A stretch of DNA of 64,000 nucleotides from assembly GCA_000004985.1 (NCBI GenBank), contig GG738845.1; one strand, written 5' to 3'. The notes below the pieces were generated by a model that did not search any database, had not been told where the DNA came from, and worked only from the letters and a program-made list of their open reading frames with translations. This document shows positions 6,316 through 29,880 of this stretch, one piece after another. The translations under genes and the position numbers were made by a program. How positions within the stretch are numbered: the first letter of the stretch is position 1; every line of letters begins with the position of its first letter. This DNA is from Naegleria gruberi. Its lineage: Eukaryota.

Positions 6316-6874
6316 TTTTTTTATTAATAAAAATTAATCAAGTGTACACTTTGAGAAATAATGTTGTTTTTAACTATTAATCAAGTAAATGAATTGTTGC
6401 AAACAAGAAATTTTGTGCCAAACCTTCATCAAACTTAGATTTTGATTTTTAGAAAATTTATTCCAGTGTCTAAAGACCTCTAGAATGGCTTTTTGAATGT
6501 TGAAGGAAGTTTGAGAGGATGATGAATCTGTCCACAAGGGCTATATTATCCCTTAAAAACATAATCTCAAACGTTAGCTCAATATTCAAAATATTGCTGA
6601 TATTTGTAAACTCATTCTTTGCACAAATTGTTTTTAAGAATGTAGATCAATTATCACAAATTTTTACACTATTGCATTTTACTCCAATCTTGATAACAGT
6701 TTCCACTTCTCTCGGTATGCGAATTTAGACAAAAAAGGCTTAATATCGACTTCGGGTTGAAACCGAACGGCCTCCATCAAACAAAAAAAATATTCACACT
6801 CGTAAACAAGGTCATCTTTGATATTGTTTGTTCAACATAAAATCATTATCATAGTTAATCGGATATATAATATA

Positions 6875-7873: not shown

Positions 7874-7943
7874 GCTCAAAAATGTAATCTAAAATTGTTT
7901 GGTGTATACCAATAAGTCAATAAATTCAATAATTGAAAATAAT

Positions 7944-10900: not shown

Positions 10901-11781
10901 AACAGTTCTGAAATTTCATTTGTAACAACTCCACAAAATATTGATTCATCCTGGATGGAGAGAGTTCTTTTTAAAATGTCGCAACCCAATACAAAACAAT
11001 TGGATAAAAAATCTTGTTGGAACATTACTCGAGATTTTTCATGAAATTCCCAATTCATTCCAATTTCAGATGATGATCCTCCAAGAGAAAATTCAGTAAT
11101 TAAATTCAGTAATAATTGAAGAGCTAAATTTTGGGACATTTGTTGTACCTGTGGTGAATCTTGGCTAAGAAGTTGTTGAATATGAGTAAATGTCATTTCT
11201 CTAAATTGTTTTCCTCCATTATTTTCATCAATCCAAGATCTTTTTTGAATAATTGAGTAACCTTGTAATAATTGATTAATTATTTGTTGTAAAATAGAAG
11301 GAGGTTGAATTGAACCAGCACCAGAACTGATAGAAGATGGAACATTTCCTCCCAAAACAACAGAGGCAATAAATTCAAATAAATATTGACTCAAGTTTAG
11401 TTTCATACTAACATCCAAAACATTCCATTCTTGAACAATAGATTTCTTGATGATATTTGAAGCAAAAAACTTTGTTACTACACTATATTGTGGTCCCTCT
11501 ATGAAATTATTAATAACAAATATATTTAAAATTATAATGATGATTACGGAATAAAAACGTACCAAGAATATGTCTACAAAAATCGTATGGTTGTGGTTGG
11601 TTTTGACAATGTTGAATAAAAGCTTCATACTCCTTTCGTTTCCTATTATCAGCAACCTGAAATAAAAATTGATGAATAACTATTTTCTTCTCTCAACACT
11701 TACGATATTCAAGTTTGAACAAGCTTCCTCTAGCTTTTGACCCAAATCATCGAAGGGTTGAAGAGGTTTTTGTGGTTCCAT
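7944..11781 (-). CDS. XPO4: exportin-4 / exportin-7 family nuclear export receptor (importin-beta superfamily, HEAT-repeat). Five exons: complement(join(7944..8349,8392..10416,10457..11498,11563..11656,11704..11781)), about 1214 aa
   Basis: Three large reverse-strand ORFs are linked by short introns with frames preserved: intron 1 is 11657..11703 (47 bp), intron 2 is 11499..11562 (64 bp), intron 3 is 10417..10456 (40 bp, GTTTGT donor) and intron 4 is 8350..8391 (42 bp). The N-terminus MEPQKPLQPFDDLGQKLEEACSNLNI|VADNRKRKEYEAFIQHCQNQPQPYDFCRHILE|GPQYSVVTKFFASNIIKKSIVQEW resembles the exportin-4 N-terminus (..[47 protein letters not shown]). The product is all-alpha and about 1200 aa. Family assignment is moderate. 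Exact junctions 3 and 4 are the only frame-compatible GT-AG choices I could find. Confidence 0.55.
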
Positions 11782-11955: not shown

Positions 11956-14900
11956 ATGGGCAAAGACGATGATGAGGTTACCAAGTTTCATGGTTATGAC
12001 TATAGATCCAACTCCAATGTTGTACTAACAACAAAGAGAAAGAAAAGATCACAAAATCAAGAACCATCAGGTGAACCAGAAACGTTGTCCGGTAAGGATT
12101 TACACAGAATGGGTGATCGTGTTATACACTCAAAACCTCCTGCCTCTGCTAAAAAGAAGAAAAAACAGGAGCAAAAATTATCATTTAAAAAAAAACAATC
12201 TATTCTGGACATTAATACTTCTCAAGAGCATTATAATCCAAAAACAGACGAAACTAGGACAGTTTATGAATCAATCTTGGACAAGGTACAACATTATTTA
12301 GGTGATGTTGACCATGATACATTAAGAGGAGCTGTAGATGAAATATTAACAATAATGCATGATGAAAATCAATCTGATCACCAAAAGCAAGAGGAAGTTT
12401 CACAAATATTATCATCAATACCAAGTGATGAGTTTGCAAAACTTTATCAATTATGCAAGCGTACCACTGATTTCGTAGTTAGTGATGTTGTAGGAGATAA
12501 TTATCAAGGAATTGATGAAGGAATAGCTTTAGTTTCATCTGATGAAGAAGAGGATGATGAAACAGAGGGATTGAACAATCAAACTGTTGGATATGTTGTT
12601 TCGTCTGACTCTGAGTCTGATATTTCTGACTCTGAACAACCTACAATAGTGGAATCTTCAAAAATGGAAGATGAAGAAGAAGAAGATTTGGATATTACCA
12701 CTATTGATTCTCTTTGGCTCCAAAAAGAGTTATCTAAGTATTATTCTGATTCTATTGAATGCAAAAAATTATCTAATGGGATTTTAGATATATTATCAAG
12801 CTCTGAAGATGAGCACGACATTGAAAATCAATTGGTTCAGATTTTAGACTATGATAAAATTGATATGGTACAAAAATTGATGAGAAATAGATTAAAAATT
12901 ATTTATTGCACAAGATTACACCAAGCAGCAACGAAAGAAGAAAAGGAAAAGATTGAACAAGAAATGATGACTAATGATAGTTTGGTAAAAATTTTAGAAA
13001 AGTTGAAAGGTACCAAAATTTCATCAGGAAATACTGGTACTTCTAGGGTAGAGAGAGAAAATTATCAATGGAAGGGAGAGAGAGTTATAAATTTGGAAAA
13101 TTTAACTTTTGAAGAGGGTAGTCATTTAATGAGTAATAGAGATTTTACTTTACCAAGTACTGCTTCTACAGCCCAATTCAAAGGTTATGAACAAATTACC
13201 ATTCCATACTCTTCTCAAGATAAACCGCGAGTAGATAATTTAATTGAAATCAAGTCATTACCAGAATGGTCTCACAAAGCATTCCCAAATATGGTTAAGC
13301 TCAATGCTGTACAGAGCATTATTTTCAAATCGGCATTTTATTCCCCTGAAAATTTGTTAATTTGTGCTCCAACTGGTGCTGGTAAGACTAATGTTGCTGT
13401 TTTGACAATGCTTCATGAAATTGGCTTACATATGGATGAAAGTTTTGACAACTTGATAGATTTGGATTTCAAGATGATATATATTGCTCCTATGAAAGCC
13501 TTAGTACAAGAAGTGGTCGGTAACTTAAGCGAGAGATTAAAACCATATAATATTGTTGTACAGGAATTAACAGGTGACAGAAATATGACAAAACAGCAAA
13601 TTGATGAGACTCAAATTATAGTCACAACGCCAGAAAAATGGGATATTGTTACTAGAAAATCTGGAGACAGGACATATGTTGAAAAAGTCAAGTTAATTAT
13701 TATTGATGAAATTCATCTTCTTCATGATGAAAGAGGTCCTGTACTAGAGTCTATTGTTGCTCGTACAATTAGACAACAAGAATCAACAAGACAAAACATT
13801 AGACTAGTAGGATTGAGTGCTACCCTTCCTAATTATAAGGATGTGGCAACATTTTTACGTGTGAAACCAGATAATTTATTTTATTTTGATAGTAGTTTTA
13901 GACCATGTCCTTTGGATCAATATTATATTGGTGTAAATGAAAAGAAGCCATTTAAAAGACACAAGTTAATGAACGAGATTGTGTATAATAAGGTTGTTGA
14001 AATAGCAGGGAAACACCAAATTATTGTGTTTGTACATTCCAGAAAGGATACATACAAAACAGCAAAGGCATTGCGTGATATGGCAATAGAAAATGATACA
14101 ATTGGTAAATTTGTGAAACAAGGTTCAGCTACTTCAGAAATACTTAAAGAGGCATCTCAGAAAGATGCTAATGGAGCAGAGTTAAAGGAATTGCTTTCTT
14201 TTGGGGTTGGCATCCATCACGCAGGTATGACAAGAAATGATCGTACTCTTGTTGAAGATTTATTTGATGATGAACGTTTACAAGTTCTGGTCAGTACGGC
14301 CACTTTAGCTTGGGGTGTTAATCTTCCAGCCAGACGAGTTATTATTAAAGGAACTCAAGTATACAGTCCTGAAAAAGGTGATTGGACAGAACTGAGTGCT
14401 CTGGATGTCATGCAAATGATAGGTCGTGCGGGAAGATTTCCAAGAGATAGTAGGGGTGAAGGTTTAATTGTAACAACCCAATCTCATTTACAGTATTATC
14501 TTGCTTTGCTTAATCAACAATTACCTATTGAAAGTCAGTTTATCAAATCGCTACCAGATAATCTTAACGCTGAGGTTGTTCTTGGAACAGTTCAAAACAT
14601 TGATGAGGCTATCAACTGGCTTGGTTATACCTATCTTTATGTTAGAATGTTGAGAAATCCGCTTCTTTATGGTATTACTAAAGAAGATGTGGAACATGAT
14701 AAGAATCTCTATCATTGGAGAAGAGATTTAGTATATTCTGCTGCATTAATTTTAGAAAAGAACGGACTTATCAAGTTCGATAAAAGATCAGGAGATTTCC
14801 AACCAACAGATTTGGGAAGAGTTGCAAGTCATTACTATGTTACTCACAAGTCAATTGCAACTTTTAATAATAATTTGAAACCAAACTTAAGCGATATTGA

Positions 14901-17900
14901 ATTATTCAGACTATTTTCCCTTTCTGATGAATTTTCTCAAATGACAGTCCGTCAAGAAGAAAAATTAGAATTATCAAAACTTATTCACAGTGTACCTATT
15001 CCTATTAAGGAATCTGCTGATGATCCATCCGCAAAGGTGAATGTGTTACTACAAGCCTACATTTCTAGGTTACGTTTGAATGGGTTTGCATTAATTGCTG
15101 ATATGACCTATATTACTCAGAGTGCTGCTCGTATTGCTAGAGCTTTATTTGAAATTATTATGCATAGAGGATGGGCTCAATTGGCATCAAAGGTTCTTAA
15201 TCTAGCTAAAATGATAGAACACAAGATGTGGTACACACAAACACCACTTAGACAATTCCCAAAGATTGAACAAACCATTCTTAAACAACTAGAGGGAAAG
15301 AACACTCTTTGGGAACGTCTTTATGACTATACTCCTGCAGAACTTGGCAGACTAGTTCACCATAATCAACGTGGAAAAGATTTATACAAGTATATCCATC
15401 AATTCCCTCGTCTTGATCTTACAGCAAGTGTCCAACCAATTACTCCAAGTACTTTAAGAATAGAGTTGACCATTTCTCCTGATTTCCAATATAACAAGAG
15501 TATTCATGGTGCAGCACAAACTTTTTGGATATTTGTAGAGGATGTAGATGGAGAAGTCATTTTACACCATGAATCATTTGTTTTAAAGCAAAAATATGCT
15601 GAAGAGAATCATTTTGTCAGTTTCACCGTTCCAATTTATGAACCGCTTCCTCCTCACTATTTTATCAAAGTAATTTCAGATAGATGGCTGCACTCTGAGC
15701 AAACACTTCCAATATCTTTTAGACATTTAATCTTACCACAAAAAGCTCCTCAAACAACAGAGTTATTAGATTTACCTCCTCTTGAAATATCTGCTCTCAA
15801 GAATGGTAAATATGAACAACTTTTATCAAATATGGGAGTATACAAATTTAATCCTATTCAAACACAAGTTTTTAGATCGGTTTATCACAGCGAGGATAGT
15901 GTTTTAATTGCTGCACCTGGTGGAAGCGGAAAGTCCTTGTGTGGAGTTCTTGCAATAATGAAAATGTTTAATGACCATGAAAATTCAAAGTGTGTGTACA
16001 TTGCTGCTATCCCATCTGTTGCCAATAAGAGAGAAAAGAAATGGATTTCTCTTTTTGAACAAATTGGCAAAAGAGTTGTAAATTTAACAGGAAATTTAGC
16101 CAAAGATATGATTTTATTCGAGCAAGGTGATATTATTATTTCCACTCCCGAACAATTTGATATGTTTTCAAGAAAGTGGAAGGCAAGAAAATCCTTATCC
16201 AATGTAAAATTGGTTGTGGCTGATGAGCTTCATATGATTGGTGGAGAAGTTGGTCCTATTATTGAAGTTGTTATTTCTAGGATTAGGTATATGTCTTCTC
16301 AATTAGAAACCAATATTAGAATTGTAGGACTAAGTGCTTCAATTTTAAATGCAAAGGATGTTGCAGACTGGATTGGTACCAAGAAGGAATGTTGCTTTAA
16401 TTTCCATCCAAGATATAGATCCATACCATTGGAAATCAATATTCAAGGATTTACTCAAAGCTCTTACAATGCCAGACAGGTAGCTATGAGTAAACCTGCG
16501 TATAAGGTAATTAAGCAAAAATCAGGAGGAGAACAAACAATTATATTTACATCTTCTCCAAAACAGGCATCTTTTATCTCATCTGATCTAATTGATCACT
16601 TGAGTAATGACATTAATTCCAAAATATTTGTTGGTGATAGTTCAGCAATTAATCATGCTATTGGTTCAGTTGACAGCTCTGCATTGAAAGAAGTACTAAC
16701 GTTTGGTATTGCTTTCTATCATGAAACTTTAACCAAAAATGACAAGCAAATTGTTGAGGAATTGTATTCTACAGGTGTTATCAAGGTGTTGGTAGTAACA
16801 CATCAAATGTGTTGGGGAATGGAGCAAAAATCAAAACTTGTAATCATTATGGGAACCGAATACTATAATGGCAAAGAACATAGATATACCGATTACTCTA
16901 TTATAGATATGGTACAAATGATGAGTAGGTCTGGTAGAATTGCAGTTGATAAGGACTCGACTTGTTACATTTTCTGTGCAGCCTCAAGAAAAGACTATCT
17001 GTTAAAATTCCTATATGAACCATTCCCAGTAGAATCCCATTTGGATCACTTCCTCTATGATCCTCTAAATGCTGAAATTTCTTCTAAAATTATTGAAAAT
17101 AAGCAAGGTGCTGTTGACTATTTGACTTGGACCTTTCTCTATAGAAGAATTCGTAAAAATCCTAATTATTACAATTTAAGTGGAACAACCAAGATACATT
17201 TATCAGACTATTTGTCCGAGTTGGTGGAATCTTCATTGGAAGAGTTGCAAAAATGTAACTGTATACTTGTTGAAGATGATGAGATAACAGCTATGAACTT
17301 GGGTACAATTGCTGCTCACTATTACGTAAAACATTCCACAATAGAAATTTACAGCACCACAATCAATAGTAAGACCAAGTTGAGAGGTTTATTAGAAGTT
17401 CTGGGTTATTCCACTGAATTTGAGCAATTACCAATTAGACAAAAGGAGAATCACATACTCAGAAAGCTTTTCACACACGCTCCGCTAAAGGTTGAAAAGC
17501 CAAACTATACCCAAGTGTCTACAAAGGTAAATTTGATACTTCAATCCCATTTTTCAAGAACAAGGCTCACACCAGCTATGGAAATGGATAAGAAACAAAT
17601 TCTTCTTCAGTCTGTAAAACTTTTAAGAGCTATGGTTGACGTTATCGGTAATGAAGGTTTTTTAACACCAGCCCTTGCAGCCATGGAAATGTCTCAAATG
17701 ATCACACAAGCATTATGGGATAAGGATCCATTTTTAATGCAATTACCTCATTTTACTAAAGAAATTTGTTCTAGATGTGAACAAGGTGGAATAATTACTA
17801 TTTTTGACTTGATTAACATGGAAGATGATGAAAGAAATCAATTACTTGGATTTGGTGAACAGCAAATGATAGATGTCGCTAAAGCACTCAATAGGTATCC

Positions 17901-18282
17901 GAATATTGAGCTTGCTCATGAAATTGTTACAGCAAATGAGGACATTACAACTAACTCTACAATTACCTTGGCTATTAGATTTGATGCTGATGATGTTGGA
18001 GATGAGCCAATTTATGCACCATATTTCCCAGAAGATAAGCTTGAAGAATGGTGGATTGTTATTGGTGATCATTTTAACAATGAAATCAAGTCGATCAAGC
18101 GATTGCCAATTAAACAATCGAGTGAGACTATGGTTAAATTTTTAGCACCATCTAAACCTGGAAAATATGAATTCAAACTTTATTTCATGTGTGATTCGTA
18201 TACTGGTTGTGATCAGGAATACCCAATTTCATTTACTGTCTTGGAAGGTGAGGATGATGATGAAATGGCAGATGAAAATTAA
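11956..18282 (+). CDS. SNRNP200: U5 snRNP 200-kDa helicase BRR2/SNRNP200 (tandem Ski2-like helicase plus Sec63 cassettes), single exon, 2108 aa
   Basis: One uninterrupted 6.3-kb ORF that lines up with human SNRNP200 at high identity along its whole length. Examples: CAPTGAGKTNVA, IIDEIHLLHDERGPVLE, LVGLSATLPNYKDVATFLRV, VSTATLAWGVNLPA, MQMIGRAGR, the second cassette DELHMIGGEVGPIIE, and the C-terminal FMCDSYTGCDQEY. The N-terminal YDYRSNSNVVL..MGDR matches human YEYKANSNLVL..MGDK. The DEIH (not DEVH) box and Sec63 units favour BRR2 over ASCC3. Confidence 0.95.
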   Translation: MGKDDDEVTKFHGYDYRSNSNVVLTTKRKKRSQNQEPSGEPETLSGKDLHRMGDRVIHSKPPASAKKKKKQEQKLSFKKKQSILDINTSQEHYNPKTDETRTVYESILDKVQHYLGDVDHDTLRGAVDEILTIMHDENQSDHQKQEEVSQILSSIPSDEFAKLYQLCKRTTDFVVSDVVGDNYQGIDEGIALVSSDEEEDDETEGLNNQTVGYVVSSDSESDISDSEQPTIVESSKMEDEEEEDLDITTIDSLWLQKELSKYYSDSIECKKLSNGILDILSSSEDEHDIENQLVQILDYDKIDMVQKLMRNRLKIIYCTRLHQAATKEEKEKIEQEMMTNDSLVKILEKLKGTKISSGNTGTSRVERENYQWKGERVINLENLTFEEGSHLMSNRDFTLPSTASTAQFKGYEQITIPYSSQDKPRVDNLIEIKSLPEWSHKAFPNMVKLNAVQSIIFKSAFYSPENLLICAPTGAGKTNVAVLTMLHEIGLHMDESFDNLIDLDFKMIYIAPMKALVQEVVGNLSERLKPYNIVVQELTGDRNMTKQQIDETQIIVTTPEKWDIVTRKSGDRTYVEKVKLIIIDEIHLLHDERGPVLESIVARTIRQQESTRQNIRLVGLSATLPNYKDVATFLRVKPDNLFYFDSSFRPCPLDQYYIGVNEKKPFKRHKLMNEIVYNKVVEIAGKHQIIVFVHSRKDTYKTAKALRDMAIENDTIGKFVKQGSATSEILKEASQKDANGAELKELLSFGVGIHHAGMTRNDRTLVEDLFDDERLQVLVSTATLAWGVNLPARRVIIKGTQVYSPEKGDWTELSALDVMQMIGRAGRFPRDSRGEGLIVTTQSHLQYYLALLNQQLPIESQFIKSLPDNLNAEVVLGTVQNIDEAINWLGYTYLYVRMLRNPLLYGITKEDVEHDKNLYHWRRDLVYSAALILEKNGLIKFDKRSGDFQPTDLGRVASHYYVTHKSIATFNNNLKPNLSDIELFRLFSLSDEFSQMTVRQEEKLELSKLIHSVPIPIKESADDPSAKVNVLLQAYISRLRLNGFALIADMTYITQSAARIARALFEIIMHRGWAQLASKVLNLAKMIEHKMWYTQTPLRQFPKIEQTILKQLEGKNTLWERLYDYTPAELGRLVHHNQRGKDLYKYIHQFPRLDLTASVQPITPSTLRIELTISPDFQYNKSIHGAAQTFWIFVEDVDGEVILHHESFVLKQKYAEENHFVSFTVPIYEPLPPHYFIKVISDRWLHSEQTLPISFRHLILPQKAPQTTELLDLPPLEISALKNGKYEQLLSNMGVYKFNPIQTQVFRSVYHSEDSVLIAAPGGSGKSLCGVLAIMKMFNDHENSKCVYIAAIPSVANKREKKWISLFEQIGKRVVNLTGNLAKDMILFEQGDIIISTPEQFDMFSRKWKARKSLSNVKLVVADELHMIGGEVGPIIEVVISRIRYMSSQLETNIRIVGLSASILNAKDVADWIGTKKECCFNFHPRYRSIPLEINIQGFTQSSYNARQVAMSKPAYKVIKQKSGGEQTIIFTSSPKQASFISSDLIDHLSNDINSKIFVGDSSAINHAIGSVDSSALKEVLTFGIAFYHETLTKNDKQIVEELYSTGVIKVLVVTHQMCWGMEQKSKLVIIMGTEYYNGKEHRYTDYSIIDMVQMMSRSGRIAVDKDSTCYIFCAASRKDYLLKFLYEPFPVESHLDHFLYDPLNAEISSKIIENKQGAVDYLTWTFLYRRIRKNPNYYNLSGTTKIHLSDYLSELVESSLEELQKCNCILVEDDEITAMNLGTIAAHYYVKHSTIEIYSTTINSKTKLRGLLEVLGYSTEFEQLPIRQKENHILRKLFTHAPLKVEKPNYTQVSTKVNLILQSHFSRTRLTPAMEMDKKQILLQSVKLLRAMVDVIGNEGFLTPALAAMEMSQMITQALWDKDPFLMQLPHFTKEICSRCEQGGIITIFDLINMEDDERNQLLGFGEQQMIDVAKALNRYPNIELAHEIVTANEDITTNSTITLAIRFDADDVGDEPIYAPYFPEDKLEEWWIVIGDHFNNEIKSIKRLPIKQSSETMVKFLAPSKPGKYEFKLYFMCDSYTGCDQEYPISFTVLEGEDDDEMADEN

Positions 18283-18318
18283 TTAAAGGATCATTTAAAT
18301 TCATCGATTGATGTTTAT

Positions 18319-21300
18319 TTACATGTCGGGCGATTGTGCTGTTGAGGAAGAAGGTGACGAGGCTTGTTTGGAGATTGTAGTGGCAGTATTGTCGATTTGT
18401 TGGAGAGAAGTAAACTGGGAGTTTAAACTGGAACTTTGATGAAGATAAGGCATTGGAGGAGAATTAGAAGTAATATAAGTAGGATTAAGGTCAGCAGTGT
18501 TTTCATGGTTATCCATTCTTGTACTTTGCTCACCAGAAAACACTCGTTTTTGGAGAGTTATATGATCAAGAAACTTTTGCTGCTCTTTTAGTTTCCAATC
18601 AGACCTGAGAGAGTCAGTTGGATCCCACAATGAGGACACCCAACCTACTGAATATGGATTTGTAGTTGAAGGTCTATTTTCTTCTTCTCTTGTTTTTTCT
18701 GCCTTTGGCGTGTAGAACCTTTGTTCTGTGGTTGAGCTAGGAACGCTCTTCGTGTCTATGTCATCATAGATTGAGAAATCTTCTTGCATTTCAATATTCT
18801 CTTTTCTCAGGTTTGTTCTTGAGGTTGACCTTCTTGGGGGTGTTATTTGATCAACATCTTGCTCTTTCTCTCCGACTGAGGTCAAATCCATAAACTTTAA
18901 TTGTTCATTAAGAGTCATCTCTGCTTTTCTTATTCGTTCTGAAATAGCAGATATCTCTGCCTTCTCTGATCCTATTTGTTTTCTTGATTTTGTTATTTCT
19001 AATCGTTCCAATTCTAACATCTTCCTTTGATCTTGAAGTTGTTTTTCAAGAGATTTAAGATTCTTTTTTTCTGCAAGATAATTTCTATTGAGGGCTTCTG
19101 CTTCATCTCTCATTTTCTCTGTTTCTGCTTTTTCTTTCATCACTTCTTGGTACTTGAGAGTGACTTGCTCACTATCGGATTGTACTTGGATCAACCTTTG
19201 GGCTAAATGTTCATGCTGTTGATAGAAGGTTTCTTTTTCCTTAATAAGCACAGATTTCAATTCTTCAACATCTCTCCTTTCTCTATCAATGAGATCTCTC
19301 ATTTCTTTAATAAGTCTTCTTTCTTCCTCCAAGCTCTTCTTTTCAGAATTCACTTGGGATTCTCTTTCGAATAGTTCTTTCATTCTTGATGTGTGTTCAA
19401 TTCTGGCAGATTCACGTTCGGCTAATGCTTCTTTTTGTAGTCTTGACAACTTTGAACGTTCTTCTTGAGTATCCACAATAAACTGTTGCCTCTCTACAAT
19501 GAATCTAGCTTTATCTTCATCTAGTCTTTCTCTCATTTCATAAATTTCTCGCATCTTGGTTTCAAATTCTTTTTCATAGTTTTTCTTTTTTTCTTCTAAC
19601 TCTCGTTCCTTCTTTAGGGTTTGTAGTCTTTCATCTTCATAGTTCTTTTGAATCGATTTCATATTCGTTTCCATCTCTACGTATAGAACTTGAATTCTAG
19701 ATCTCTCGGTGGCCAATTCTTCCTTTTGTTTTTGATGGGATTTTTCAGTCTCGGAAATAAGTCTCTCTCTAACTACAAGGTGATCTTCTTTTTGTTTGAA
19801 GACTTTCATTTGATCCTCGTAGAGTCTATGGTGAAGAGTTTCTACTGAGTGAGCATTCACTTCTATTTTCTTAATGAGATCATTTAAAGATGATTCTACT
19901 TGAATGTTTTTCATCTTTTTATCGTATTCCTCCTTCAATATTCTTTTATGCTCCTCAACTTCCTCTTTTTGTCTTTGCTGGATGGCCATCTTTTCCATTT
20001 CATGAAGTTTATGAATCTGATCAATTTCCATTTGATTTCTTCTTTTCAAGTTTTCCATCTCGGTGGATATTGTTAAATCAGCTCTCTCTTTTTCTCTGAG
20101 TAATCTGGATGTAAATCCCTCTGAATCCTCTTGGATTTTCAGTTCTTTTTGTCTTACTTCTTCTTTTAACTGTTCAATTTTGAGATGAGATTTCTGAATT
20201 GTTGTTTCAAACTCTATTCTAACATTATTAACTGTTGCCTGTTTCTCTTGCTCGAAATTTAACTTCATCCTATGTATCATTTCTTCATGCTCTTGTTTTA
20301 ATTCATTGACAATATTTTTTTCTTTCAACTCGTATTCAAGTTGTTTTTTTGCATGTTCTTTGAGTTGAATTTCTTGTTGTTGGATGGTTTTTTGAAGGTC
20401 ATCTATTTGGGAAATCAACTTTGACCGTTCTTCTAGGAACTCTTGTTTTAATTCCATTTTTAGTAATCCAGAAATGTTTTCCAAATCTTCTTTTACCAAG
20501 CTCCGTTGTACAACATGTGGTGGATTGTCTATCCTTTTTGGAGAAGGAATTGGAAGTGATTTTTGGCGTGGAGAGGATGAAAGATCAGATAGTTTGATTG
20601 GTGATGAAGTCTTGTTGGAGGATGTATTTGAAGGTTGTTGTTGAATCTTGGTACTTTGTCTACTTTTAGGCACTTCCTCAGGATCAAGATAACTCAGCGA
20701 TTTTCTCCCATGTTCCTCCATTGGATCTGCAAAGTCAAAATCATCATCAAAAACTTCTTCCTCCTCAACAGTTTCTTCCATATGACCATCCTCAAAGTCA
20801 GTAAAGTTCTCTAGGTCTGTATCTTCAGCCCTAGGTTGCTCAATAGATCCTCTAAACGAATCATCAAAATCACTTTCAATAAAGTCCTCATCTTCTATTA
20901 TTTCCTCTTCAAAATCATTATTTTGTTTCTTTTGTCTGTTGTCACGTTCTCTTTTTTCTTTTTCTTCTCTTTCTCTCCTTTCCCTTATTTCTCTTTCTTT
21001 TCTCTCTTTTTCTTCACGTTCTCGTCTCTCTTTTTCGAGTCTTTCCTTTTCTTCTCGTTGCTTTTTTTCTTTAACTTCATTTTCTTCTCGTTGCTTTCTC
21101 TCCCTCTCTTCCCTTTCAATTTTTTCTTTTCTATCTCTTTCAATTTTTTCTTTTTCCTTCCTCTCTCTTTCCTTTTGCTCAAATTCTTCCCTTTCTCGTC
21201 TCTCCTGTTCCCTTTGTTTCCTTTCTCTTTCTTCTCTTTCCATTTTTTCTTTTCTATCTTGTTCTAATCTTTCTCTTTCTTGACGTTCCCTATCTTCTCT

Positions 21301-22197
21301 ATCTCTCCTCTCCTGATCTTCCCTCTGTTTTCTCTCTCTTTCTTCTCTTTCAATCTTTTCTTGCTCCCTTTCTTTTCTTTCCTTTTCCTCTTTTTCTTTG
21401 ATTTTCAAAATCTCTTTTTCTTGTTCTTCCATTAACTGATCATCATCAAAGTCGAAATCGTCCTCAATAGAAGATGGAGATTTTGATTTCTTTTTAGTTT
21501 TTTTCTCATTCTTAAAATCAGGAACAGTAAATCCAGAGGGCCTTTTGCTTGAGTTGGGTCGTTTTGATCTTGCAAAATCAAATGAGTAAGCATCTTGTTT
21601 ATCATTTTTTGGTGAAGGGGCTTTCTTCTTGTCCTTCTTTTTTGTTTCTTTTTTGGTTACCGGGTTGAAATCATCCAGGCCAAGCATTTCTCCAACTTCG
21701 TCATCATCAATATCTGAAAACTATCAAAATTATGATTAATACTCTTACAACAAAAAATAACATACACCAGATGTAGAAACATTCTCATCAGTATTTTCTG
21801 TATTGGTATTGGAATTTTTCTTTCCAAATAGATCCACATTAATCTTTGTTAATGATCCAGATGAGCTGGATGATGCATTACTTTTGGAAGATTTGTTTGA
21901 ATTTTTCCTAGAAACTTGATCTGAACTATTTTTCTTTCCTAATAAACCTCCAACAGATGTTAGATCATTTGTACTTTCCGATTCATCTTCACTGGCTGAG
22001 TCCCTTGTTGCTGAAAAGACTTCTCCAAAATCATTACTTCCAAGTATCATGTTAGATTTTCTTGTGTTGGTTGTATTTTTCTTGAATTTTGATCCAAGAT
22101 TAAAACCAAAATTAAAGTCATTGCTATCGTTAGACCCAGAGGAACTAATGGATGAACGTGATGATTTTCCTCTTGGCAGAGATGTCAATCCACTCAT
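18319..22197 (-). CDS. large coiled-coil protein with N-terminal S/N-rich region and an (E/R/K)-rich repeat block; function unknown. Two exons: complement(join(18319..21720,21766..22197)), about 1277 aa
   Basis: A 1122-codon ORF plus an upstream exon are joined by a 45-bp GTATGT..GATAG intron (21721..21765) in phase 0, giving ...NVSTSG|FSDIDDDEVGEMLGLDDF.... The real ATG is at 22197 (KKMSGLTS); the track's earlier M at 22230 is a TTG. The central region has repeats of EKIEREERERKQRE. A long heptad-like region (LKEHAKKQLEYELKEK...) predicts coiled coil. I recognise no family. Confidence 0.55.
20940..21420. repeat. about 480-bp strand-asymmetric polypyrimidine (plus) / polypurine (minus) low-complexity tract with imperfect internal tandem repeats; it encodes the E/R/K repeat block of the coiled-coil protein
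   Basis: The plus strand is almost only C and T (for example cttctcgttgcttt twice, ttcaattttttctttt twice). The minus-strand codons are GAA, AGA, AAG and GAG, giving EKIEREERERKQRE units. Confidence 0.7.
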
Positions 22198-22207
22198 TTT
22201 TTTATTG

Positions 22208-22240
22208 TTTTGGCGGGAAAAGTTGTACAAAATTTGGCGC
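22208..22240 (-). promoter_or_regulatory. composite promoter motif: palindromic E2F-like site TTTTGGCGGGAAAA, then TTGTACAA, then a second E2F-like site TTTGGCGC; 11-43 bp upstream of the coiled-coil gene ATG in a 217-bp divergent intergenic region shared with syntaxin
   Basis: Read directly from the sequence at 22208-22240. TTTSSCGC matches the E2F consensus, and TTGGCGGGAAAA is the same sequence I recall for the human MYC P2 E2F site. A CCAAT box lies at 22245-22249. On the gene strand the order is GCGCCAAA-TT-TTGTACAA. A near-identical arrangement occurs at 25596-25618. Confidence 0.45.
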
Positions 22241-22414
22241 TAAACCAATATTGTTAATCATGTTAATGATTGATTTGTTCTGATCTGAATTATTGACAGA
22301 AATAAGGGCCATAATTAATAACATATTCAAACTTAATTAAGGGTGACAATTCCAATTCATTTAGACTCCTTTTCCAACGGCCTTATTCTTACAACCTCAC
22401 TACCGCCAAAAAAA

Positions 22415-23470
22415 ATGAACAACAGGTTAAAGGATTTGAAGGTGTGTTTTAAAATATTAGGATTCATTAAATGGGAAATGTAAATTACATTAAATTTTCA
22501 CTTTTTAATACAGAAAAAAGCTCAAGGAAGAGCCGATGATCTTGATGAAATTGCCTTACAGGATAAATACGAACACGGAGACTTGGAAAGAGCTGAAGGT
22601 GGTTACTCCAACGGAAGGTTGATTCCAAAGGAATCAGAATTTGTTTCTGAATTTTTCAGTCAAGTCAGTGAGATTAAAACTAGAATTAATAAGATTGATG
22701 AAAATGCAACCTTAATGGAAAAACAATATAACAGCATCATAGCAGAAGTAAAGAAAGAAGCAAACACAAAAGCTTTTAAACAAAAAGTCACAGCCCTATC
22801 CGATGATATTGATGACGACATGAGATTTGTGAAGAGGAGTCTTGAAGAAATGGCTCAAACCAACAGAATTTTAGAAGAACATTCCGCAGAGAGGAGAATG
22901 AGAGAAAATCAACATGCATCACTCACACAGCTTTTCTTCACTGTTATGCAACGATTTAACGGAATTCAAGCAGCTTGTAAACAAAGATACAGAGATGATT
23001 TAATGCGAAATCTCAGAAATATTTATAGTGAAGATGAAAAGTCAGATGAAGAACTCAATGAAATGATAGAATCCGGTCAAATTCAAGAGGGAAATTTATA
23101 TGGAAAGTTTTTGTTAAAAAACTCAACACAAAACACTATCAAATCTACTTACAGTGAGATCAAGGAAACCCATGAAGATTTGAAACGACTGGAATTATCC
23201 ATGAGCGAACTTCAAGATATGTTCAGAGATTTGCACTCTCTTTTAATGATGCAACAAGATTTGATCGATAACATAGAAGACAATGTATTAAGAAGTGTTG
23301 ACTATACTGAAAAGGGTGTTAACAATATCAAGACTGCAAAGAAAGTGGCTGACAAGACCAGACATGCCAAGTGCTGTTTGTTTGTCATTGTAATTGTTGT
23401 CGCAATTGTTGTTATTTTGATTGTGGCTGGTGTTATTGGTATTTCTGTTCCTCTTTCTATATTGAAGTAG
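22415..23470 (+). CDS. syntaxin-1-like Qa-SNARE (Habc, SNARE motif, C-terminal TM anchor). Two exons: join(22415..22441,22514..23470), 327 aa
   Basis: A 9-codon first exon MNNRLKDLK is followed by a 72-bp GTGTGT..TACAG intron (22442..22513), then KKAQGRADDLDEIALQ... in frame with the ORF. The track's leading M at 22583 is a TTG. The SNARE motif LHSLLMMQQDLIDNIEDNV matches STX1A LVESQGEMIDRIEYNV. The C-terminal CCLFVIVIVVAIVVILIVAGVIGI is a tail anchor. Confidence 0.85.
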
Positions 23471-23484
23471 AACTTTTACTTGTA

Positions 23485-23490
23485 AATAAA
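23485..23490 (+). terminator. AATAAA polyadenylation signal 15 bp downstream of the syntaxin stop codon
   Basis: The hexamer AATAAA sits at 23485-23490, and a second AATAAA-like motif lies a few bp further on. This is consistent with very short 3' UTRs elsewhere in the window. Confidence 0.35.
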
Positions 23491-23749
23491 TGTAAAGAAT
23501 AAATTCATTCATTTCAAATTTTTTATGACAATCAGTATGATTGTTACTGGAAATTATCTGATTTACTGCACAAATTGAGATAGAAATATGGAGCAAATGC
23601 CAACCATGCTCGGGGATAAAGATTTAGATGACCTTGATGTACACAGTTTTATCATATCGCCACTTCTGGTTCGCATTCTTCTTCAATCACTTTCGCTACC
23701 CAACAACAAAATTGATTGAACAAATCTGTTGTGTTTTATTGAAGAAAAA

Positions 23750-25561
23750 ATGCGTAGATACATCACCAGTAATACCACACAAGTATTTACCAACTCTCTC
23801 CTCTCAAAAACGTGCGCTCAAAGACACTATTCCCAATCATCGAATTCGGAGAAGGCACCACTACCACCTAATTTTGAGTCAGCAATCATTAATGACAATA
23901 CTAAAGTCAATATTGAATCTCAGATAAATTCCGAAATATTAACTGAGAGGAAGTATCATGTTATTCCATCCATCTTTGAACAATATGGAACACCTCGTCC
24001 TCCAACTTTTTCACTCATTCATCAATATAACTCGGATTCTAAACATTTGGACTTTTCTACAACATCAGAAGTAACAGCAAGTTTGCCAAACATTGAAAAA
24101 ACCTACCCGGATTCTCATCTCATAGAATATTACTCGAAACATAATGCACAACTGAAATCTGTTCAATTGAAAGATAATGTTGTTGACAGTCAACCATATT
24201 ACAGATTATCTGCATTTAATTATGGATCTGTAAGATACAGTTTATTAAGATCAGGATTTAAACGTGTTGGAAAGGATGTTCCAGTTGTTGAAAGAGGATA
24301 TTTAAAACTTTCAGAACAAGATCAAGAAAAGAGATTTGAAAGTTTTGTTAACGAACCATTTTCAATTTACTGGGGTAGACACTTACCAGCTCATTTCTAT
24401 CAGCATTTAAATCATTTCCAAAGAGTGAACCACTTTCCTGGATCAACTAATTTGGGTAGAAAGGATCTATTGTTTATCAATTTATTCAGACAAAAACAAT
24501 TGTCAGGTGATTCAGAATATGGTTTCTTTCCTGACAGCTTTTTACTTCCTTATGATTATAAGGTTTTTCAACAAAGATGTAAAGAGCAGGATTTATTTAT
24601 CCTTAAACCTTTTGCAAGCAGTTGTGGTCGTGGTATAAGTGTGTATAATACCAAGAAACATGCACCACTCCCAGAAGATAAACGTATACTCGTACAGGAA
24701 TACATCGCTAACCCTCTACTGATAGCAGGAAAGAAATTTGATATGAGATTATATGTTTTAGTTTCATCATATGATCCGCTTCGTGTATATCTTCATTGTG
24801 ATGGTTTGGCACGTTTTGCCACTGAGGAATATGACATGTCAAGACTAGATTCTGTTTTTTCCCATCTCACTAACTATTCCATCAATAAGAAATCAGATAA
24901 TTTCGTAAGAAATGATGAAGAATGTGAGGATGAGGAAGATGGTTGGAATGAACATGCTCACAAGTGGAGTATTCCATCTTTAAAAACCTATTTGGCTCGT
25001 AATGGATATCCAGTTGATAAAATTTGGGGTGATATTGAAGGTCTCATTGTAAAGACATTAATTTCTGTTGAGAATAGAATTCGTGGCACATGTGAAAAGG
25101 TTCAAATGCCATCAAAGAACAATTGTTTCGAGATTTATGGATTTGATGTTATGTTAGATGGAGATCTTAAACCATGGCTTATTGAAGTTAACATTATGCC
25201 ATCACTTGCTGTTTCTTCAGTATTGGATAAGAGAGTCAAAGTAGATGTTTTAAGCGAGTCGTTCCATATTTTAGGAATGATTCCTCATTCTCGAGCCAAT
25301 TATGAGCAAGAAAAGAAGACTAAACTGAACTATTACGGAGAGTCTGTAAGTGCCAAAGAAAAGTACATTCTTCATGATAGCGAAGATGAACTGTCCAGAT
25401 TGCACAACTTTAAGAGAATCTATCCGCCTGTTGATGGTAACCCAGCCAGATATGAACATTTATTCCAAGAACATGTCGAATCTAACAAGGTACTCATAGA
25501 TTTTGAAAAGGAAAAAAGAACAACAACAAATATTGAATCCCTTCACAAACTGATTGCATAA
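23750..25561 (+). CDS. tubulin-tyrosine-ligase-like (TTLL) family protein, polyglutamylase-type TTL/ATP-grasp domain, 603 aa
   Basis: The real ATG is at 23750; the track's M at 23729 is a TTG. TTL-domain motifs match TTLL1 and TTLL9: [16 protein letters not shown] (QIVNHFPNHYELTRKDL), [56 protein letters not shown] ([41 protein letters not shown]), and [27 protein letters not shown] ([27 protein letters not shown]). Confidence 0.8.
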   Translation: [603 protein letters not shown]

Positions 25562-25595
25562 ATGAATTTTTATTTGTTTAATTATTCTTCTTGTA

Positions 25596-25618
25596 TTTTG
25601 GCGCCAAAACTTGTACAA
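25596..25618 (+). promoter_or_regulatory. composite promoter motif: perfect palindromic E2F-like site TTTTGGCGCCAAAA then CTTGTACAA; 50-73 bp upstream of the CFAP57 ATG, in the 107-bp spacer after the TTLL stop
   Basis: TTTTGGCGCCAAAA is at 25596-25609, like the overlapping inverted E2F sites in DHFR-type promoters. TTGTACAA is at 25611-25618. A downstream CCGCCAAT (CCAAT box / further GGCGG) follows at about 25633-25641. It shares 17 of 19 nt (GCGCCAAAnnTTGTACAA) with the 22208-22240 element in the same gene-relative orientation. Confidence 0.45.
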
Positions 25619-25668
25619 TTTATTTAGCCTTCTTCCGCCAATTTTTGCAACAACAGAAAAAAAACATC

Positions 25669-28546
25669 ATGATCTCTAATGAGGACACCATTCCCAAAAC
25701 ACCCACCTCGTCTTCGGAGGACACACCAAGGAAAGAGGTTAAAGAAGCAAATAGTTTAATAGATCCTTCATCACAAAAAAAGGAAGAAGAGGAATATACT
25801 GTAGAGGACGATAATTTTGAAGGAAGTAGATTAAAATTTTAGTAAGTTTTAGTTAAATTGATAAAGATAACAACAATACTAGTCACACACTAGGTTTAAG
25901 GAGCATACCACAACCTATTCAACATTTGGAAAATGAGGAAGAAATGGTTTACCTAGTTGGAAAACATGTTTCCATCTATAATTACGAAAAAAGAACTCAT
26001 TCTTTCATTTTAAAAAGTAACAACATTCTGGAAATACATTGCTTTGCTATTTCCCCAAATAGAGCTCTTATAGCATTGAGTGAATCATTTATCGATCAGA
26101 AAAAGAAACTTAGCAACACCCCAAACACAAAAGACGCAGTAGAACATCAAATTTCTGTTTATAATTTCAAGAATGCAAAAAGAGCAAGAGTACTTAGTGT
26201 TGTAGGACCATCTGGTAAATCGACTCCAGTTATTTCAATGGCTTTTTCAGGAGATGCTCAGTATTTGGCAGCAGTAACAGATGAACCTGAACAAGCAATT
26301 TATTTATGGCATCTAGCAAAAGCAAATGTAAGTCTAAATTGAATGATTGTGACAATGAACTTGAATTCAGAGAATATCATGTAAAAAAATACCATTCAAA
26401 GTAACTCAAATCTCTATTAATCCTTATTCCCCTTGGCAACTTGCTACTTCTGGGCCAGATGATATGAAAATTTGGAGATACACAGAAGGAGAGTTGAAAC
26501 ATATTGACCCAATAGGGAGTGACAAGTATACTTACAAATGTCATTCTTGGTATGATGACGAAAAGTTGCTTGTAGGAACTGAGGAAGGTCAGGTACTTGT
26601 TATCGAAGGGAAAAATGTCGTAAAAGTGATTTCCAATGTTCACCCTAATGCATCAGGTATCCTTTGTATTGAGGCAATAGATAGAGGTTTTGTTTGTGCT
26701 GGTGAAAATGGTTATTTCTCTGTTTTTGAAAGGACGTACGATTCAGAACATTTTAATCATTACAAAAAATTTAGAACTATTGAAAAAAGGAAAATTGTTG
26801 CATTGTGTGTTTCCAGAAAGGAGAATAATGTAATTTGTAGTTATGATGACAACAAACTTGCCTTCTTTTCTTTAGCGAATGTAGATATTCTCAAAGAAAA
26901 TGATAACAACTTTACACTCCTGCCTGTGGGATTCCATGGCCAACTAGTTCTAGGAATGTCAAATTGTATTCAAAAACCGTTACTTGTTACTTGTGGATCT
27001 GATAGGACATTACGGTTATGGAATTATGTAAAAAGACAAATCGAGCTGGAAAAAACATTTGATGAGGATGTTTATTGTGTAACTTTGGATCCAACTGGAA
27101 CAAGAATATTACTAGGATTTAGGTACAAGTTGAGTTGTTATGCAATATTATCAAATGATTTATATTTATTACATGATTGGCATATTAAGGGATGTAAGCT
27201 AGCCAACTATTCGAATGGAGGACATTATTTTGCATGTGTATCGGCAACATCAATATTGGTTATATCCTCTCTAACATTTCAAGTTGTAAATACATTGAGA
27301 GGGCATAGTGGAATCATTAAATCAGTGGTTTGGGGTAAAAATGATACTCAACTTGCATCAGCAAGTTTTGATGGAACTATCTGTGAGTGGGATATTGTAT
27401 CTGACAAACTAAGAATACATGAAAATGTTGTTAAAACTTGTGCATTCAGATGCGTTGCCTATGATCACAAAAATCACATGTGCTCTGGAGTTGGAAGTGA
27501 TGGTAATTTGTGGACGTTTGGAGGTGGAACACTATTCAGTCAAATTCCAACAAAGGAAGATCTAACCTGCCTTGTTTATTGTTCCCAGGCTGAACTAGGG
27601 ATTGTTGGTACAGCAAGTGGAAAACTTCTCTTGTATGCTTGGCCTCCAGATGACCATGCGTTTGTAGAGTATGAGGTTCACAATGGTGCAATTTCATCTA
27701 TAATATTAAGTCAGGATGAAAAGTTTCTGTTCACTTTAGGAGCAGATGACACTCTTTTCATGCTAGAAATTGAGACAAGAAAAGAAGGAAAAACTCTTCA
27801 ATTGAAATCTGTAGATTTTGATAAGTTTTATGATCTCTATTACACACTGAGAGGAATAGAAGAAGAAACAGAACAGCAAATAATGGAACTTTCAGATAAA
27901 GCAAAACTAGCAAGTGATGAAAATGAACGAAAATACCAACACATTGTGGATAGATATGACCAAGAACTTGAGTCTCAAAAAATGAAATTTACAAACGATA
28001 TTAAGGAATTAAAACGAAGGAATGAACTACTAAAATCTCAGTTAACAGATCAAGAAGCTAATTCCAAAGAAAACGTTAACAGAATTGAGTATTCACATCA
28101 GGAAGAAATAGACCATGAGCGAACCATCTCTGAAAACCTCTTGAAAGAAACAAAAGAAAAATATGATAGGGAAATAGAAAGTTTGAAGGAGAAACTAGCA
28201 TACTTTGTTGATTTGGTGAAGGTTATGACCGAGAAACACGAAGAAGAAATTGAGAAATTGAAGCAAGAGTATGAGGAAGAAAAACTTCAGCTGGTTGAAA
28301 CCTATGATAACCTTAGCCAAGACTTTAAACAATTATCAAGTGTTTATCAGGCGACAGTACAACAATCAGAGGAAGATTTTGACACTCAACTTAAAAGAGT
28401 TAAGACATCCTTGATTCATACAATCGAAAAACACAAACAATCCGTTATTGAAGCCAAAGGAGAGGCTGTTAAAAAAGGAACCAAAGTTGAAGAGCTGAAG
28501 AAGGAAATAACCTTGCTCAAGTCAAAAGTTTCAAAGCAAGAAGAAA
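25669..28546 (+). CDS. CFAP57: cilia- and flagella-associated protein 57 (CFAP57/WDR65): WD40 beta-propeller plus C-terminal coiled coil; 3' end lost in assembly gap. Exons: join(25669..25841,25883..26327,26401..>28546)
   Basis: Exon 1 (ATG at 25669, MISNEDTIPK...GSRLKF) ends in phase 2 at a GTAAGT donor. A 41-bp intron (25842..25882) gives ...KF|Y|HTLGLRSIPQPIQ..MVYLVGKHVSIYNYEK, matching human CFAP57 ..ALHVFGLRSHV..IIIFPSGNHCVKYNVDQK. A 73-bp intron (26328..26400, phase 0) joins to VTQISINPYSPWQ.... Conserved blocks include ISPNRALIALSE (ISPNRRYLAISE), ISMAFSGDAQYLAAVTDEPEQAIYLW ([26 protein letters not shown]), and CIQKPLLVTCGSDRTLRLWNY ([21 protein letters not shown]). A heptad-rich coiled-coil tail follows. 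The ORF runs straight into the 50-N gap at 28547, so about 300 aa are missing. Confidence 0.75.
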
Positions 28547-28596
28547 NNNNNNNNNNNNNNNNNNNNNNNNNNNNNNNNNNNNNNNNNNNNNNNNNN
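28547..28596. other. assembly gap (50 N placeholder) inside the CFAP57 coding region
   Basis: A run of exactly 50 N. The flanking reading frame is open into the gap, and the sequence after the gap is non-coding. Confidence 0.99.
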
Positions 28597-28625
28597 TTAT
28601 ATATGATTTGTGTGTTTATTTAATT
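28597..28625. repeat. copy 1 of a 24-29-bp direct repeat (TATATGATTTGTGTGTTTATTTAA), immediately after the 50-N gap
   Basis: Matches 29477-29507 (TATATGATTTGTGTTTATTTAAAATTTA) apart from a GT indel. The two copies are about 880 bp apart. Confidence 0.6.
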
Positions 28626-28818
28626 TTTTAAATTTAAAGCACTGCTAATGCCAAGGCGATTAGTGATTGATTTTGAAAGCAATTAATAGATCATCTGAAT
28701 TTTCTATTGACAGAAACGTATTTTAGTAGTTCAGTTCTACCTAGTTGTAATAAACACCGGAAATTTATTTATGTTTTTAACATTAAAAGCTGAAAGTAGT
28801 AAAATGATGATATTTGAA

Positions 28819-28847
28819 ATATATATATATACACATATATATATATT
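28819..28847. repeat. (AT)n / (AC) dinucleotide microsatellite
   Basis: The sequence is atatatatatatacacatatatatatatat in non-coding DNA between the two gaps. Confidence 0.8.
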
Positions 28848-29476
28848 TTAATTGATGTTTGACAAACATATCCACCACATGTATGAAAATTCGTATTTTT
28901 CATTGAAATACTAATAAATTTCTATTTTAATTACTGCCAATTCAAACAGGCAACAAACGACACACATTATCACATTATCAGACATTGTAATAGCAAATGC
29001 TAAACCTTTTGTTGTTTATAATATGTGAAATCTGTAGACAGAAAAAAATGAAACACAGTTTTTAAGAAGAAATCATCGAAAAACTCAAGTAAAATGAAGA
29101 ATAGAAAATCACTTTTAAGGGGTAAAAAATTTAATCTGAATAGATAAATGAATTTGCGAGGAATTATGATGAAAAGGATGTAGTGAGAATGGGATTTGAT
29201 AAAGAGATAAGTAAAAAACATGATGAGGAGTATGATGAAGAATAAAAGAGAAATGATTTTTCTAACATAGATAAATATAATTTTTGTTCACATATATTCA
29301 CCCAATAATTTATCAAAACAATAAAATACCCCAAATCAATTCTCATATCACAACAAAATAAATTGTAAAAATATACAAAAATTATATTCAAACTCGAATT
29401 TAGATCTACAGTATTTCAGAAACGACACTTTATGTTGTTGATAAACCTATAAATTTGGATTTTTAGTTTTTTACAA

Positions 29477-29507
29477 TTTTATATGATTTGTGTTTATTTA
29501 AAATTTA
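29477..29507. repeat. copy 2 of the direct repeat TATATGATTTGTGT(GT)TTATTTAA
   Basis: See copy 1 at 28597-28625. Confidence 0.6.
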
Positions 29508-29880
29508 CGGTTAGAGAGGAATTTTGGATATTATAGTACACTCGTTGTTGAGGTGTTCTTTTTGTCATCATCAGTAAGTGTAATCAGTATGGAGATTCTA
29601 GTTGGATATTATTGACAGCAATTACAAAAAGTACTTGTTATTATTATAAGACAACAATGGATTAGTGGGATAGTTAAGTGGTGTCTCAATCTTTGAACTT
29701 TTAATCTATTTGTCTTAATTTATTATTTTATTATTTTGTGGATTTAAAAACAGAGATTTATCCAAAAAGCCAAGCCAAAAATTCAACCAGATTGTCCTTT
29801 TTAAAAAGCCATATCCAAAAAAAGCGGTTTGGGATAGATATTGGATATTAATATACTCTCCTTCTAATAGTTGCAACTAC

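Follow-up and report, generated by a model that had tools for sequence, protein, structure and literature searches.

Two GC-rich elements located 3.4 kb apart in the Naegleria gruberi genome, each adjoining a copy of the palindrome TTGTACAA, raise the question of what kind of regulatory site they represent and whether the element and the palindrome belong to a single cis-regulatory module. A previous sequence-only reading described them as a composite of an E2F-like site and TTGTACAA at two unrelated promoters, linked it to a cell-cycle, centriole or cilium module, and assigned a role to the nearby CCAAT boxes. We compared the two sites with each other, with the remaining sequence of the window, and with promoters from related genomes.

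Genomic context and identity of the carrier genes

The window, i.e., the whole stretch of DNA analyzed here, comprises 64,000 nucleotides of contig GG738845.1 (assembly GCA_000004985.1). Sequence letters occupy positions 1-29880 (29.9 kb) and the rest is N; this N padding accounts for more than half of the window, and a 50-N assembly gap is located at 28547-28596 within CFAP57. The G+C content is 33%, and CpG dinucleotides are strongly depleted, with an observed/expected ratio of 0.40. The scaffold is characterized by high gene density and rare introns, and no structured RNA or tRNA was found in the window. The following genes were identified:

1169-4746, minus strand: apparent NifS-like / PP-loop fusion gene
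4896-6315, minus strand: TAF4
to 7873, plus strand: fatty-acid hydroxylase
7944-11780, minus strand: Exportin-7-like gene
11956-18282, plus strand: Brr2
18319-22197, minus strand: FBF1-like gene (earlier termed "coiled-coil gene"), two exons and one intron
22415-23470, plus strand: syntaxin gene, one intron, ATG at 22415
about 23750-25561, plus strand: TTLL
25669-29880, plus strand: CFAP57, ATG at 25669, reaching the end of the real sequence

The genes next to the sites under study start with ATGs at 22197 on the minus strand and at 22415 and 25669 on the plus strand. The FBF1-like and syntaxin genes are divergent and share a 217-bp intergenic region. Elsewhere in the window, convergent genes end close to each other: the stops of Brr2 and the FBF1-like gene are separated by 36 bp (18283-18318), and the hydroxylase and exportin genes, which are also convergent, by 70 bp (7874-7943). 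The gene at 1169-4746 combines class-V aminotransferase (NifS-like) and PP-loop ATPase domains in one long gene on the minus strand, an arrangement resembling two fused sulfur-transfer functions.

The gene at 18319-22197 is probably a homologue of FBF1 (Fas-binding factor 1), a protein of the centriole distal appendages and transition fibres. Its product has no direct match in Pfam or among solved structures, and when 1.84 billion representative proteins were searched with HMMER, few real relatives emerged, including P0009 (1e-65) and P0010 (3e-42). All ten hits that were chosen because their alignment extends past the charged repeat match the Pfam family PF21007 (FBF1), nine of them above the score cut-off, and the BLASTP alignment of the FBF1-like protein with P0012 (5e-20) is collinear over ~700 aa. 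The N-terminal motif and the charged repeat are common to the FBF1 homologues from Acrasis kona and from metagenomes. This Glu/Arg/Lys-rich, ERKERE-type repeat lies 5' of the coiled coil of the FBF1-like protein (20900-21420, minus strand), and the same layout is kept in the homologues (1-500 in locus L006 and about 6700-7150 in locus L008 of A. kona). The public A. kona FBF1 gene model (550 aa, start at 8001; L008 6014-9653) appears to be truncated; the gene shows one open frame from 6324 and a likely first exon at 6014.

The CFAP57 product matches CFAP57 chains in solved structures at ~1e-76. The syntaxin product contains the Pfam Syntaxin and SNARE domains; its open reading frame at 22583-23470 is 100% identical to an N. 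gruberi protein, 83% to its counterpart in N. lovaniensis, and 59% to that in W. magna. Given the probable FBF1 identity of one carrier and the CFAP57 identity of the other, both genes that follow the composite would be basal-body/cilium genes. The two promoters can thus no longer be called unrelated, as they serve cilium-related genes located 3.4 kb apart. The cilium-related trio of FBF1-like, TTLL, and CFAP57 genes falls within 11.5 kb (18319-29880) with syntaxin as the sole interruption, and in A. kona the FBF1 gene is arranged tail-to-tail with CFAP58 (L008 6014-12408); cilium genes may therefore be locally clustered.

E2F-like sites in the two N. gruberi promoters

Site 1 (22208-22240) reads GCGCCAAATTTTGTACAACTTTTCCCGCCAAAA as its reverse complement, and site 2 (25596-25618) reads TTTTGGCGCCAAAACTTGTACAA. 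Both sequences are present where the sequence-only reading had placed them, its quotation of site 2 running 3 nt past 25618. The sites and the surrounding intergenic regions contain the following elements:

22208-22221, minus strand: proximal E2F-like site of the FBF1-like gene, TTTTCCCGCCAAAA on the sense strand, 11-24 nt upstream of the ATG at 22197
22223-22230, palindromic: TTGTACAA of site 1, 5 nt from a GC core on both sides
22233-22240, minus strand: distal E2F-like site of the FBF1-like gene, GCGCCAAA on the sense strand and TTTGGCGC on the plus strand, 36-43 nt upstream of the ATG
22245-22249, plus strand: CCAAT pentamer near site 1, probably incidental
22403-22414, plus strand: E2F-like CCGCCAAAAAAA, abutting the syntaxin ATG (22415) on its upstream side
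25596-25609, palindromic: perfect 14-nt palindrome TTTTGGCGCCAAAA, 60-73 nt upstream of the CFAP57 ATG
25611-25618, palindromic: TTGTACAA of site 2, 5 nt from the GC core
25635-25641, plus strand: proximal E2F-like CCGCCAA of CFAP57, 28-34 nt upstream of the ATG

The palindrome TTTTGGCGCCAAAA is composed of two overlapping TTTGGCGC sites, and the proximal CCGCCAA of CFAP57 overlaps a CCAAT pentamer at 25638-25642. The E2F consensus is GCGSSAAA with the core requirement SGCGS, as given in PMC4862756. Four exact copies of its complementary form TTTSSCGC, each containing the SGCGS core, occur in the window against 0.22 expected, a number equalled in none of 100 shuffles, and all four are located at sites 1 and 2. 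The palindrome TTGTACAA is likewise overrepresented, with five copies against 0.91 expected and none of 100 shuffles reaching five. The copies at 22223 and 25611 are indeed the only intergenic ones, as previously noted, and the other three (1713, 8802, and 20506) are inside coding sequence. The distance between the 6-nt GC core and TTGTACAA is exactly 5 nt in all three cases.

Both promoters share the sequence TTTTGGCG[GG/CC]AAAA[G/C]TTGTACAA, in which 20 of 23 nt are identical, and the 19-mer pattern GGCGSSAAAASTTGTACAA occurs exactly twice with no occurrence expected by chance. The conserved core had been reported as 17 of 19 nt; the core GCGCCAAAnnTTGTACAA in fact matches at 16 of 18. An alignment in the same orientation does exist, as had been claimed, but the opposite orientation is equally good or better, with TTTTGGCGGGAAAAGTTGTACAA (22208-22230) matching TTTTGGCGCCAAAACTTGTACAA (25596-25618) at 20 of 23 nt. 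This second alignment arises because TTGTACAA is palindromic and is flanked at site 1 by E2F-like sites on both sides.

The strength of this similarity was evaluated by comparing the six intergenic regions with one another, every pair in either orientation, and scoring the result against dinucleotide shuffles. The composition-weighted ungapped score of 28.6 bits was equalled in 2 of 300 shuffles, whereas a plain +1/-2 score was equalled in 59 of 300 and is not significant, since runs of A and T readily match each other. The similarity between sites 1 and 2 is thus unlikely to have arisen by chance, at the ~1% level. This is less overwhelming than raw 8-mer odds would imply.

The E2F-like motif as a proximal promoter element across Heterolobosea

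For comparison we used loci from a Naegleria-like relative (L001), N. lovaniensis (L003), W. magna (L004), and A. kona (L008). In L001 the CFAP57 protein is 77% identical to that of N. gruberi and the gene order TTLL-CFAP57 is retained. The whole sample covers ~50 promoters in ~110 kb, with the start codons in the loci of the relatives taken from automatic gene calls. In the window and in L001, L003, and L004, 10 of the 11 SCGCCAA sites are located at most ~75 nt upstream of an ATG with CGCCAA on the sense strand; this is the placement of a proximal promoter element, with distances measured to the ATG and not to the transcription start. Among all 6-mers in the 100 nt upstream of the 35 ATGs in these four loci, CGCCAA ranks first behind words made of A and T only, with 11 occurrences against 0.42 expected and copies in eight promoters; its rank is unchanged after removal of the window (6 against 0.26 in L001, L003, and L004). 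In a test on five loci from other species, which is independent of the sequences that defined the motif, five of eight SCGCCAA sites fell into the upstream zone that makes up 2.6% of the search space (p ~6e-7), all of them in the sense orientation. Overall, every non-palindromic site within ~100 nt upstream of an ATG has the sense orientation, and about one promoter in five carries the CGCCAA motif. Since CpG is depleted in this DNA (0.40), the retention of CpG-containing motifs in promoters suggests constraint.

The motif is shared by genes of diverse functions. Syntaxin promoters from four species (the window, W. magna, N. lovaniensis, and a metagenomic (JGI) relative) contain a GC core followed by an A-run at most 40 nt from the ATG, and two of them have the strict motif. 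No strict site was detected among the eight promoters of the N. lovaniensis locus L003, in which the syntaxin promoter has only GGCGCAAAA. In W. magna, a kinase gene whose best solved-structure matches are BUB1 (5e-23) is preceded by a double site, TTTGGCGCCAAA followed by CCGCCAAAA, ~40-65 nt upstream. This BUB1-like gene is the one clear case of a cell-cycle gene with such sites in a sample without replication genes. The other carriers are the cilium genes, syntaxin, W. magna Fra10Ac1, and Saf4/Yju2, the latter with the variant ACGCCAAT. Both the motif and the composite are absent from the TTLL gene, which lies between the two carriers. The proposed link to a cilium or centriole module is strengthened by the FBF1-like and CFAP57 identities, but a cilium-specific module is not supported, given the sites at syntaxin, Fra10Ac1, and BUB1-like genes and the TTLL gene without one.

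Two further features of these promoters were observed. The start-to-start distances between distal and proximal CGCCAA cores are 24, 34, and 14 nt (22210-22239; 25602-25641; L004 6276-6295), which are equal modulo 10, or approximately one helical turn; with three cases, this could be chance. A-runs are strongly enriched directly 5' of the ATGs, with 58 occurrences of AAAAAA against 6.5 expected and copies in 19 of 35 promoters. A search of the literature found no paper on Naegleria promoter motifs or E2F sites.

Conservation in orthologous promoters

Proximal sites are retained in both orthologous promoters that could be compared. The proximal CCGCCAA of CFAP57 (25635-25641) reads CCCGCCAAAA in L001 and is part of an alignable block. 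The FBF1 orthologue of A. kona has CTTGAACTTTTGCCGCCATAATAAAAAAAA ~40-50 nt upstream of its ATG, which aligns with AACTTTTCCCGCCAAAACAATAAAAAAA of N. gruberi; the proximal site is kept there as TTTTGCCGCCATAA, with AACTTTTSCCGCCAWAA as the common part. This A. kona site is a one-base variant, CCGCCAT, with C before CG instead of the preferred G. Given that the N. gruberi and A. kona FBF1 proteins are only ~30% identical, it is notable that this promoter block has been retained. Conservation does not extend to the distal sites: the L001 position aligned with the CFAP57 palindrome is degenerate (AGCGCTCAAT), and the distal site at 22233-22240 falls into a gap of the A. kona alignment. The N. gruberi sequence GCGCCAAATTTTGTAC has no counterpart in the A. 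kona FBF1 promoter, and TTGTACAA is kept neither there nor at the aligned position of the L001 CFAP57 promoter. Comparison of orthologous promoters, which had been put forward as a check on the composite, therefore favors its E2F-like part and not the palindrome.

The CFAP58 promoter of A. kona (L008 12409-12470, minus strand) contains TTTTTGCGCTAACCA followed by TTTTTGTAAC and resembles TTTGGCGCTAAACCA of N. gruberi (22233-22247), so that a further cilium gene has an E2F-like site with one mismatch. Promoters of two further homologues were uninformative, as L006 begins inside the FBF1 homologue and L009 is transcript-like with a 122-nt leader. The syntaxin loci of N. lovaniensis and W. magna show no synteny with the FBF1-like gene and were used as additional promoter samples. 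Metagenome scans with the N. gruberi CFAP57 N-terminus and with a three-species alignment recovered no relatives.

Taken together, the consensus match, the bias in position and orientation in several heterolobosean species, and the conservation at orthologs support the earlier proposal that the GC-rich elements are E2F-type sites.

The TTGTACAA palindrome and the CCAAT pentamers

The palindrome had been proposed as a conserved partner site for another factor. Besides its absence from both orthologous promoters, it is missing beside every other E2F-like site seen in the relatives, which speaks against this role. From these comparisons TTGTACAA appears to be a feature of the two N. gruberi promoters only, and the composite is unproven. 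The palindrome may be a species-specific site for a dimeric cofactor or a neutral coincidence; SBP-domain (GTAC core), HMG/Sox, and LIN54-type factors are guesses as to its reader. A literature search for TTGTACAA retrieved no regulatory motif among the matches listed; the string occurs in Gateway cloning primers. The word TTGTA near E2F-like sites recurs in the metagenomic (JGI) syntaxin promoter, W. magna Fra10Ac1, and A. kona CFAP58, but we gave it no weight, as the word is too common in AT-rich DNA.

CCAAT pentamers are located within 30 bp of both sites (22245-22249 and 25638-25642), as had been observed. With 93 copies of CCAAT/ATTGG in 29.9 kb, the chance of such a neighbor within 30 bp of a 23-mer is 0.23-0.24 per site. 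Moreover, the CCAAT at site 2 is the end of CCGCCAAT, overlapping CCGCCAA, and the L001 relative reads CCGCCAAAA at this position. The assignment of these pentamers to NF-Y is thus unsupported, because CCAAT proximity is common and the site-2 copy, which belongs to CCGCCAAT, has not been retained in L001.

Interpretation of the GC-rich elements

The consensus fit of the elements, the extension of several of them to 12-14 nt forms, and the occurrence of E2F, DP, and pRb families in Excavata lead us to take them as putative E2F/DP-type sites acting as proximal promoter elements, a reading to which we give about an even chance. Such forms are typical of E2F selection experiments. A survey whose genome set included N. 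gruberi reports E2F, DP, and pRb families across eukaryotic supergroups, Excavata among them (PMC4862756). Under this reading, the sites would lie 6-75 nt 5' of the start codon, with CGCCAA on the sense strand unless palindromic, often as a pair of a distal and a proximal site, and would serve CFAP57, the FBF1-like gene and, probably, its divergent neighbor syntaxin. Their predicted binding factor is an E2F/DP heterodimer with Rb-type control, which could connect the carriers with the cell cycle or with the amoeba-to-flagellate programme, during which basal bodies arise de novo.

Carriers that have no obvious role in the cell cycle or cilium, such as syntaxin and Fra10Ac1, count against the E2F reading, as do the TTLL gene without the motif, the lack of a strict site in the N. 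lovaniensis locus L003, the one-base variation of the A. kona FBF1 site, and the small sample. The sites are strictly in sense orientation, which one would expect of core-promoter elements rather than of typical E2F sites. Because of this orientation and the mixed set of carriers, we keep a rival explanation in which a different factor, for instance one that positions the transcription start, reads SCGCCAA(A/T) as a core or proximal promoter element of Heterolobosea, and the likeness of this element to E2F sites is coincidental. Its appeal lies in the proximity of all non-palindromic upstream sites to the ATG and their uniform orientation, in the functional mixture of syntaxin, Fra10Ac1, Saf4/Yju2, and the BUB1-like kinase, and in the presence of the motif in about one fifth of promoters; we nevertheless consider it doubtful, because several sites match a full 12-14 nt E2F-type palindrome or TTTTCCCGCCAAAA, well past the 6-nt core, the paired sites at the BUB1-like gene fit E2F biology, and no alternative factor is known. 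A larger unit is also conceivable, in which an E2F-type factor and a dimeric factor bound to TTGTACAA at a fixed 5-nt spacing would co-regulate basal-body/cilium genes during flagellate differentiation. The invariant spacing of all three GC cores, the two unexpected occurrences of the 19-mer, the weighted score reached in only 2 of 300 shuffles, and a match of 8 of 9 flanking nucleotides, to which we assign a rough probability of ~0.01-0.02 given the E2F-like sites, all argue for such a unit, as do the cilium-related functions of both carriers and the fact that the drivers of Naegleria cilia genes are unknown (PMC12183034). Its weight is reduced by the restriction to two instances 3.4 kb apart, by the non-significant unweighted similarity, by the three copies of TTGTACAA in coding sequence, by the TTLL gene without the composite, and above all by the missing palindrome in both orthologous promoters and beside the other E2F-like sites of the relatives, so that we regard this unit as rather unlikely.

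Two further explanations are far less probable. The 23-nt similarity could stem from shared ancestry, either as a piece of a dispersed repeat or of a MITE end or through duplication or gene conversion between the neighboring promoters, and both the closeness of the copies on one scaffold and the short, sharply bounded similarity agree with such an origin. We judge it very improbable, since neither flanking homology nor a repeat family was found at the sites, no further copies were detected in the window or the fetched loci, L006 and L008 likewise being free of TTGTACAA, and the E2F-like parts are independently conserved at orthologous genes elsewhere. The classic cell-cycle promoter architecture of E2F plus NF-Y, which the sequence-only reading had invoked, draws on the CCAAT copies within 30 bp of each site and has an equally slim chance in view of the frequency of such neighbors and the dependence of the site-2 copy on CCGCCAAT, which is CCGCCAAAA in the relative. 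The NF-Y consensus is RRCCAATSR, and the flanks of the CCAAT copies do not fit it. The reading as E2F/DP-type proximal promoter sites remains the most likely.

Comparison with known regulatory systems

The general resemblance is to the E2F/DP sites of animals and plants, examples of which are the overlapping inverted site TTTCGCGCCAAA at the DHFR start site and the paired sites in the E2F1 and adenovirus E2 promoters. The heterolobosean sites conform to the TTTSSCGC / GCGSSAAA consensus as well, with palindromic and TTTCCCGCCAAA-type forms among them, and they are clustered just 5' of the gene and paired, with one pair at a BUB1-like gene. They differ from the animal and plant sites in their heterolobosean host, for which no E2F site is described in the papers searched, in the uniform sense orientation of the non-palindromic sites, and in carriers that include cilium and syntaxin genes. 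If the elements are of the E2F type, recognizable E2F cis-elements would extend to a very deep eukaryotic branch. E2F/Rb control is viewed as dating to the last eukaryotic common ancestor, and the present motif fits this view (PMC4862756). If the elements represent a general promoter element instead, they would, with respect to the papers searched, provide Heterolobosea with its first defined promoter motif.

The CDE/CHR elements bound by the DREAM complex (E2F4/DP and LIN54) provide a second point of comparison. A CHR has the consensus TTYRAA and is located 4 nt downstream of a GC-rich CDE. The N. gruberi sites similarly combine a GC-rich E2F-like core with an A/T-rich element at a fixed short spacing; however, this spacing is 5 nt and not 4, and TTGTACAA is a palindrome that is not conserved in relatives and contains no TTYRAA. 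Regulation by RFX factors via the X-box and by FOXJ1 likewise involves a short motif near the start of cilium genes, but the motif sequence differs, and RFX and FOXJ1 are reported to be absent from Naegleria (PMC12183034). According to the same 2025 review, the factors that drive Naegleria cilia genes are unknown because RFX, FOXJ1, and XAP5 are all absent (PMC12183034).

A further point of comparison is the E2F4/5-MCIDAS/GEMC1 programme of vertebrate multiciliated cells, in which E2F-type sites are also tied to genes for centriole and cilium assembly. The geminin-family cofactors of this programme are vertebrate proteins, and any such link in Naegleria would be based on two carrier genes. Naegleria activates hundreds of genes for basal bodies and flagella within 1 hour. 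The cell builds its basal bodies outside normal duplication (PMC12183034). That E2F-type sites, perhaps together with TTGTACAA, are the missing switch for these genes is a long shot on the sequence comparisons made here, and the conserved E2F-type motif, with its narrow placement upstream of FBF1 and CFAP57, turns it into a concrete and cheaply testable hypothesis. If it were true, the E2F control of centriole and cilium assembly seen in vertebrate multiciliated cells would either be ancient or have arisen twice, and the conserved FBF1 and CFAP57 sites across Heterolobosea would be its first traces.
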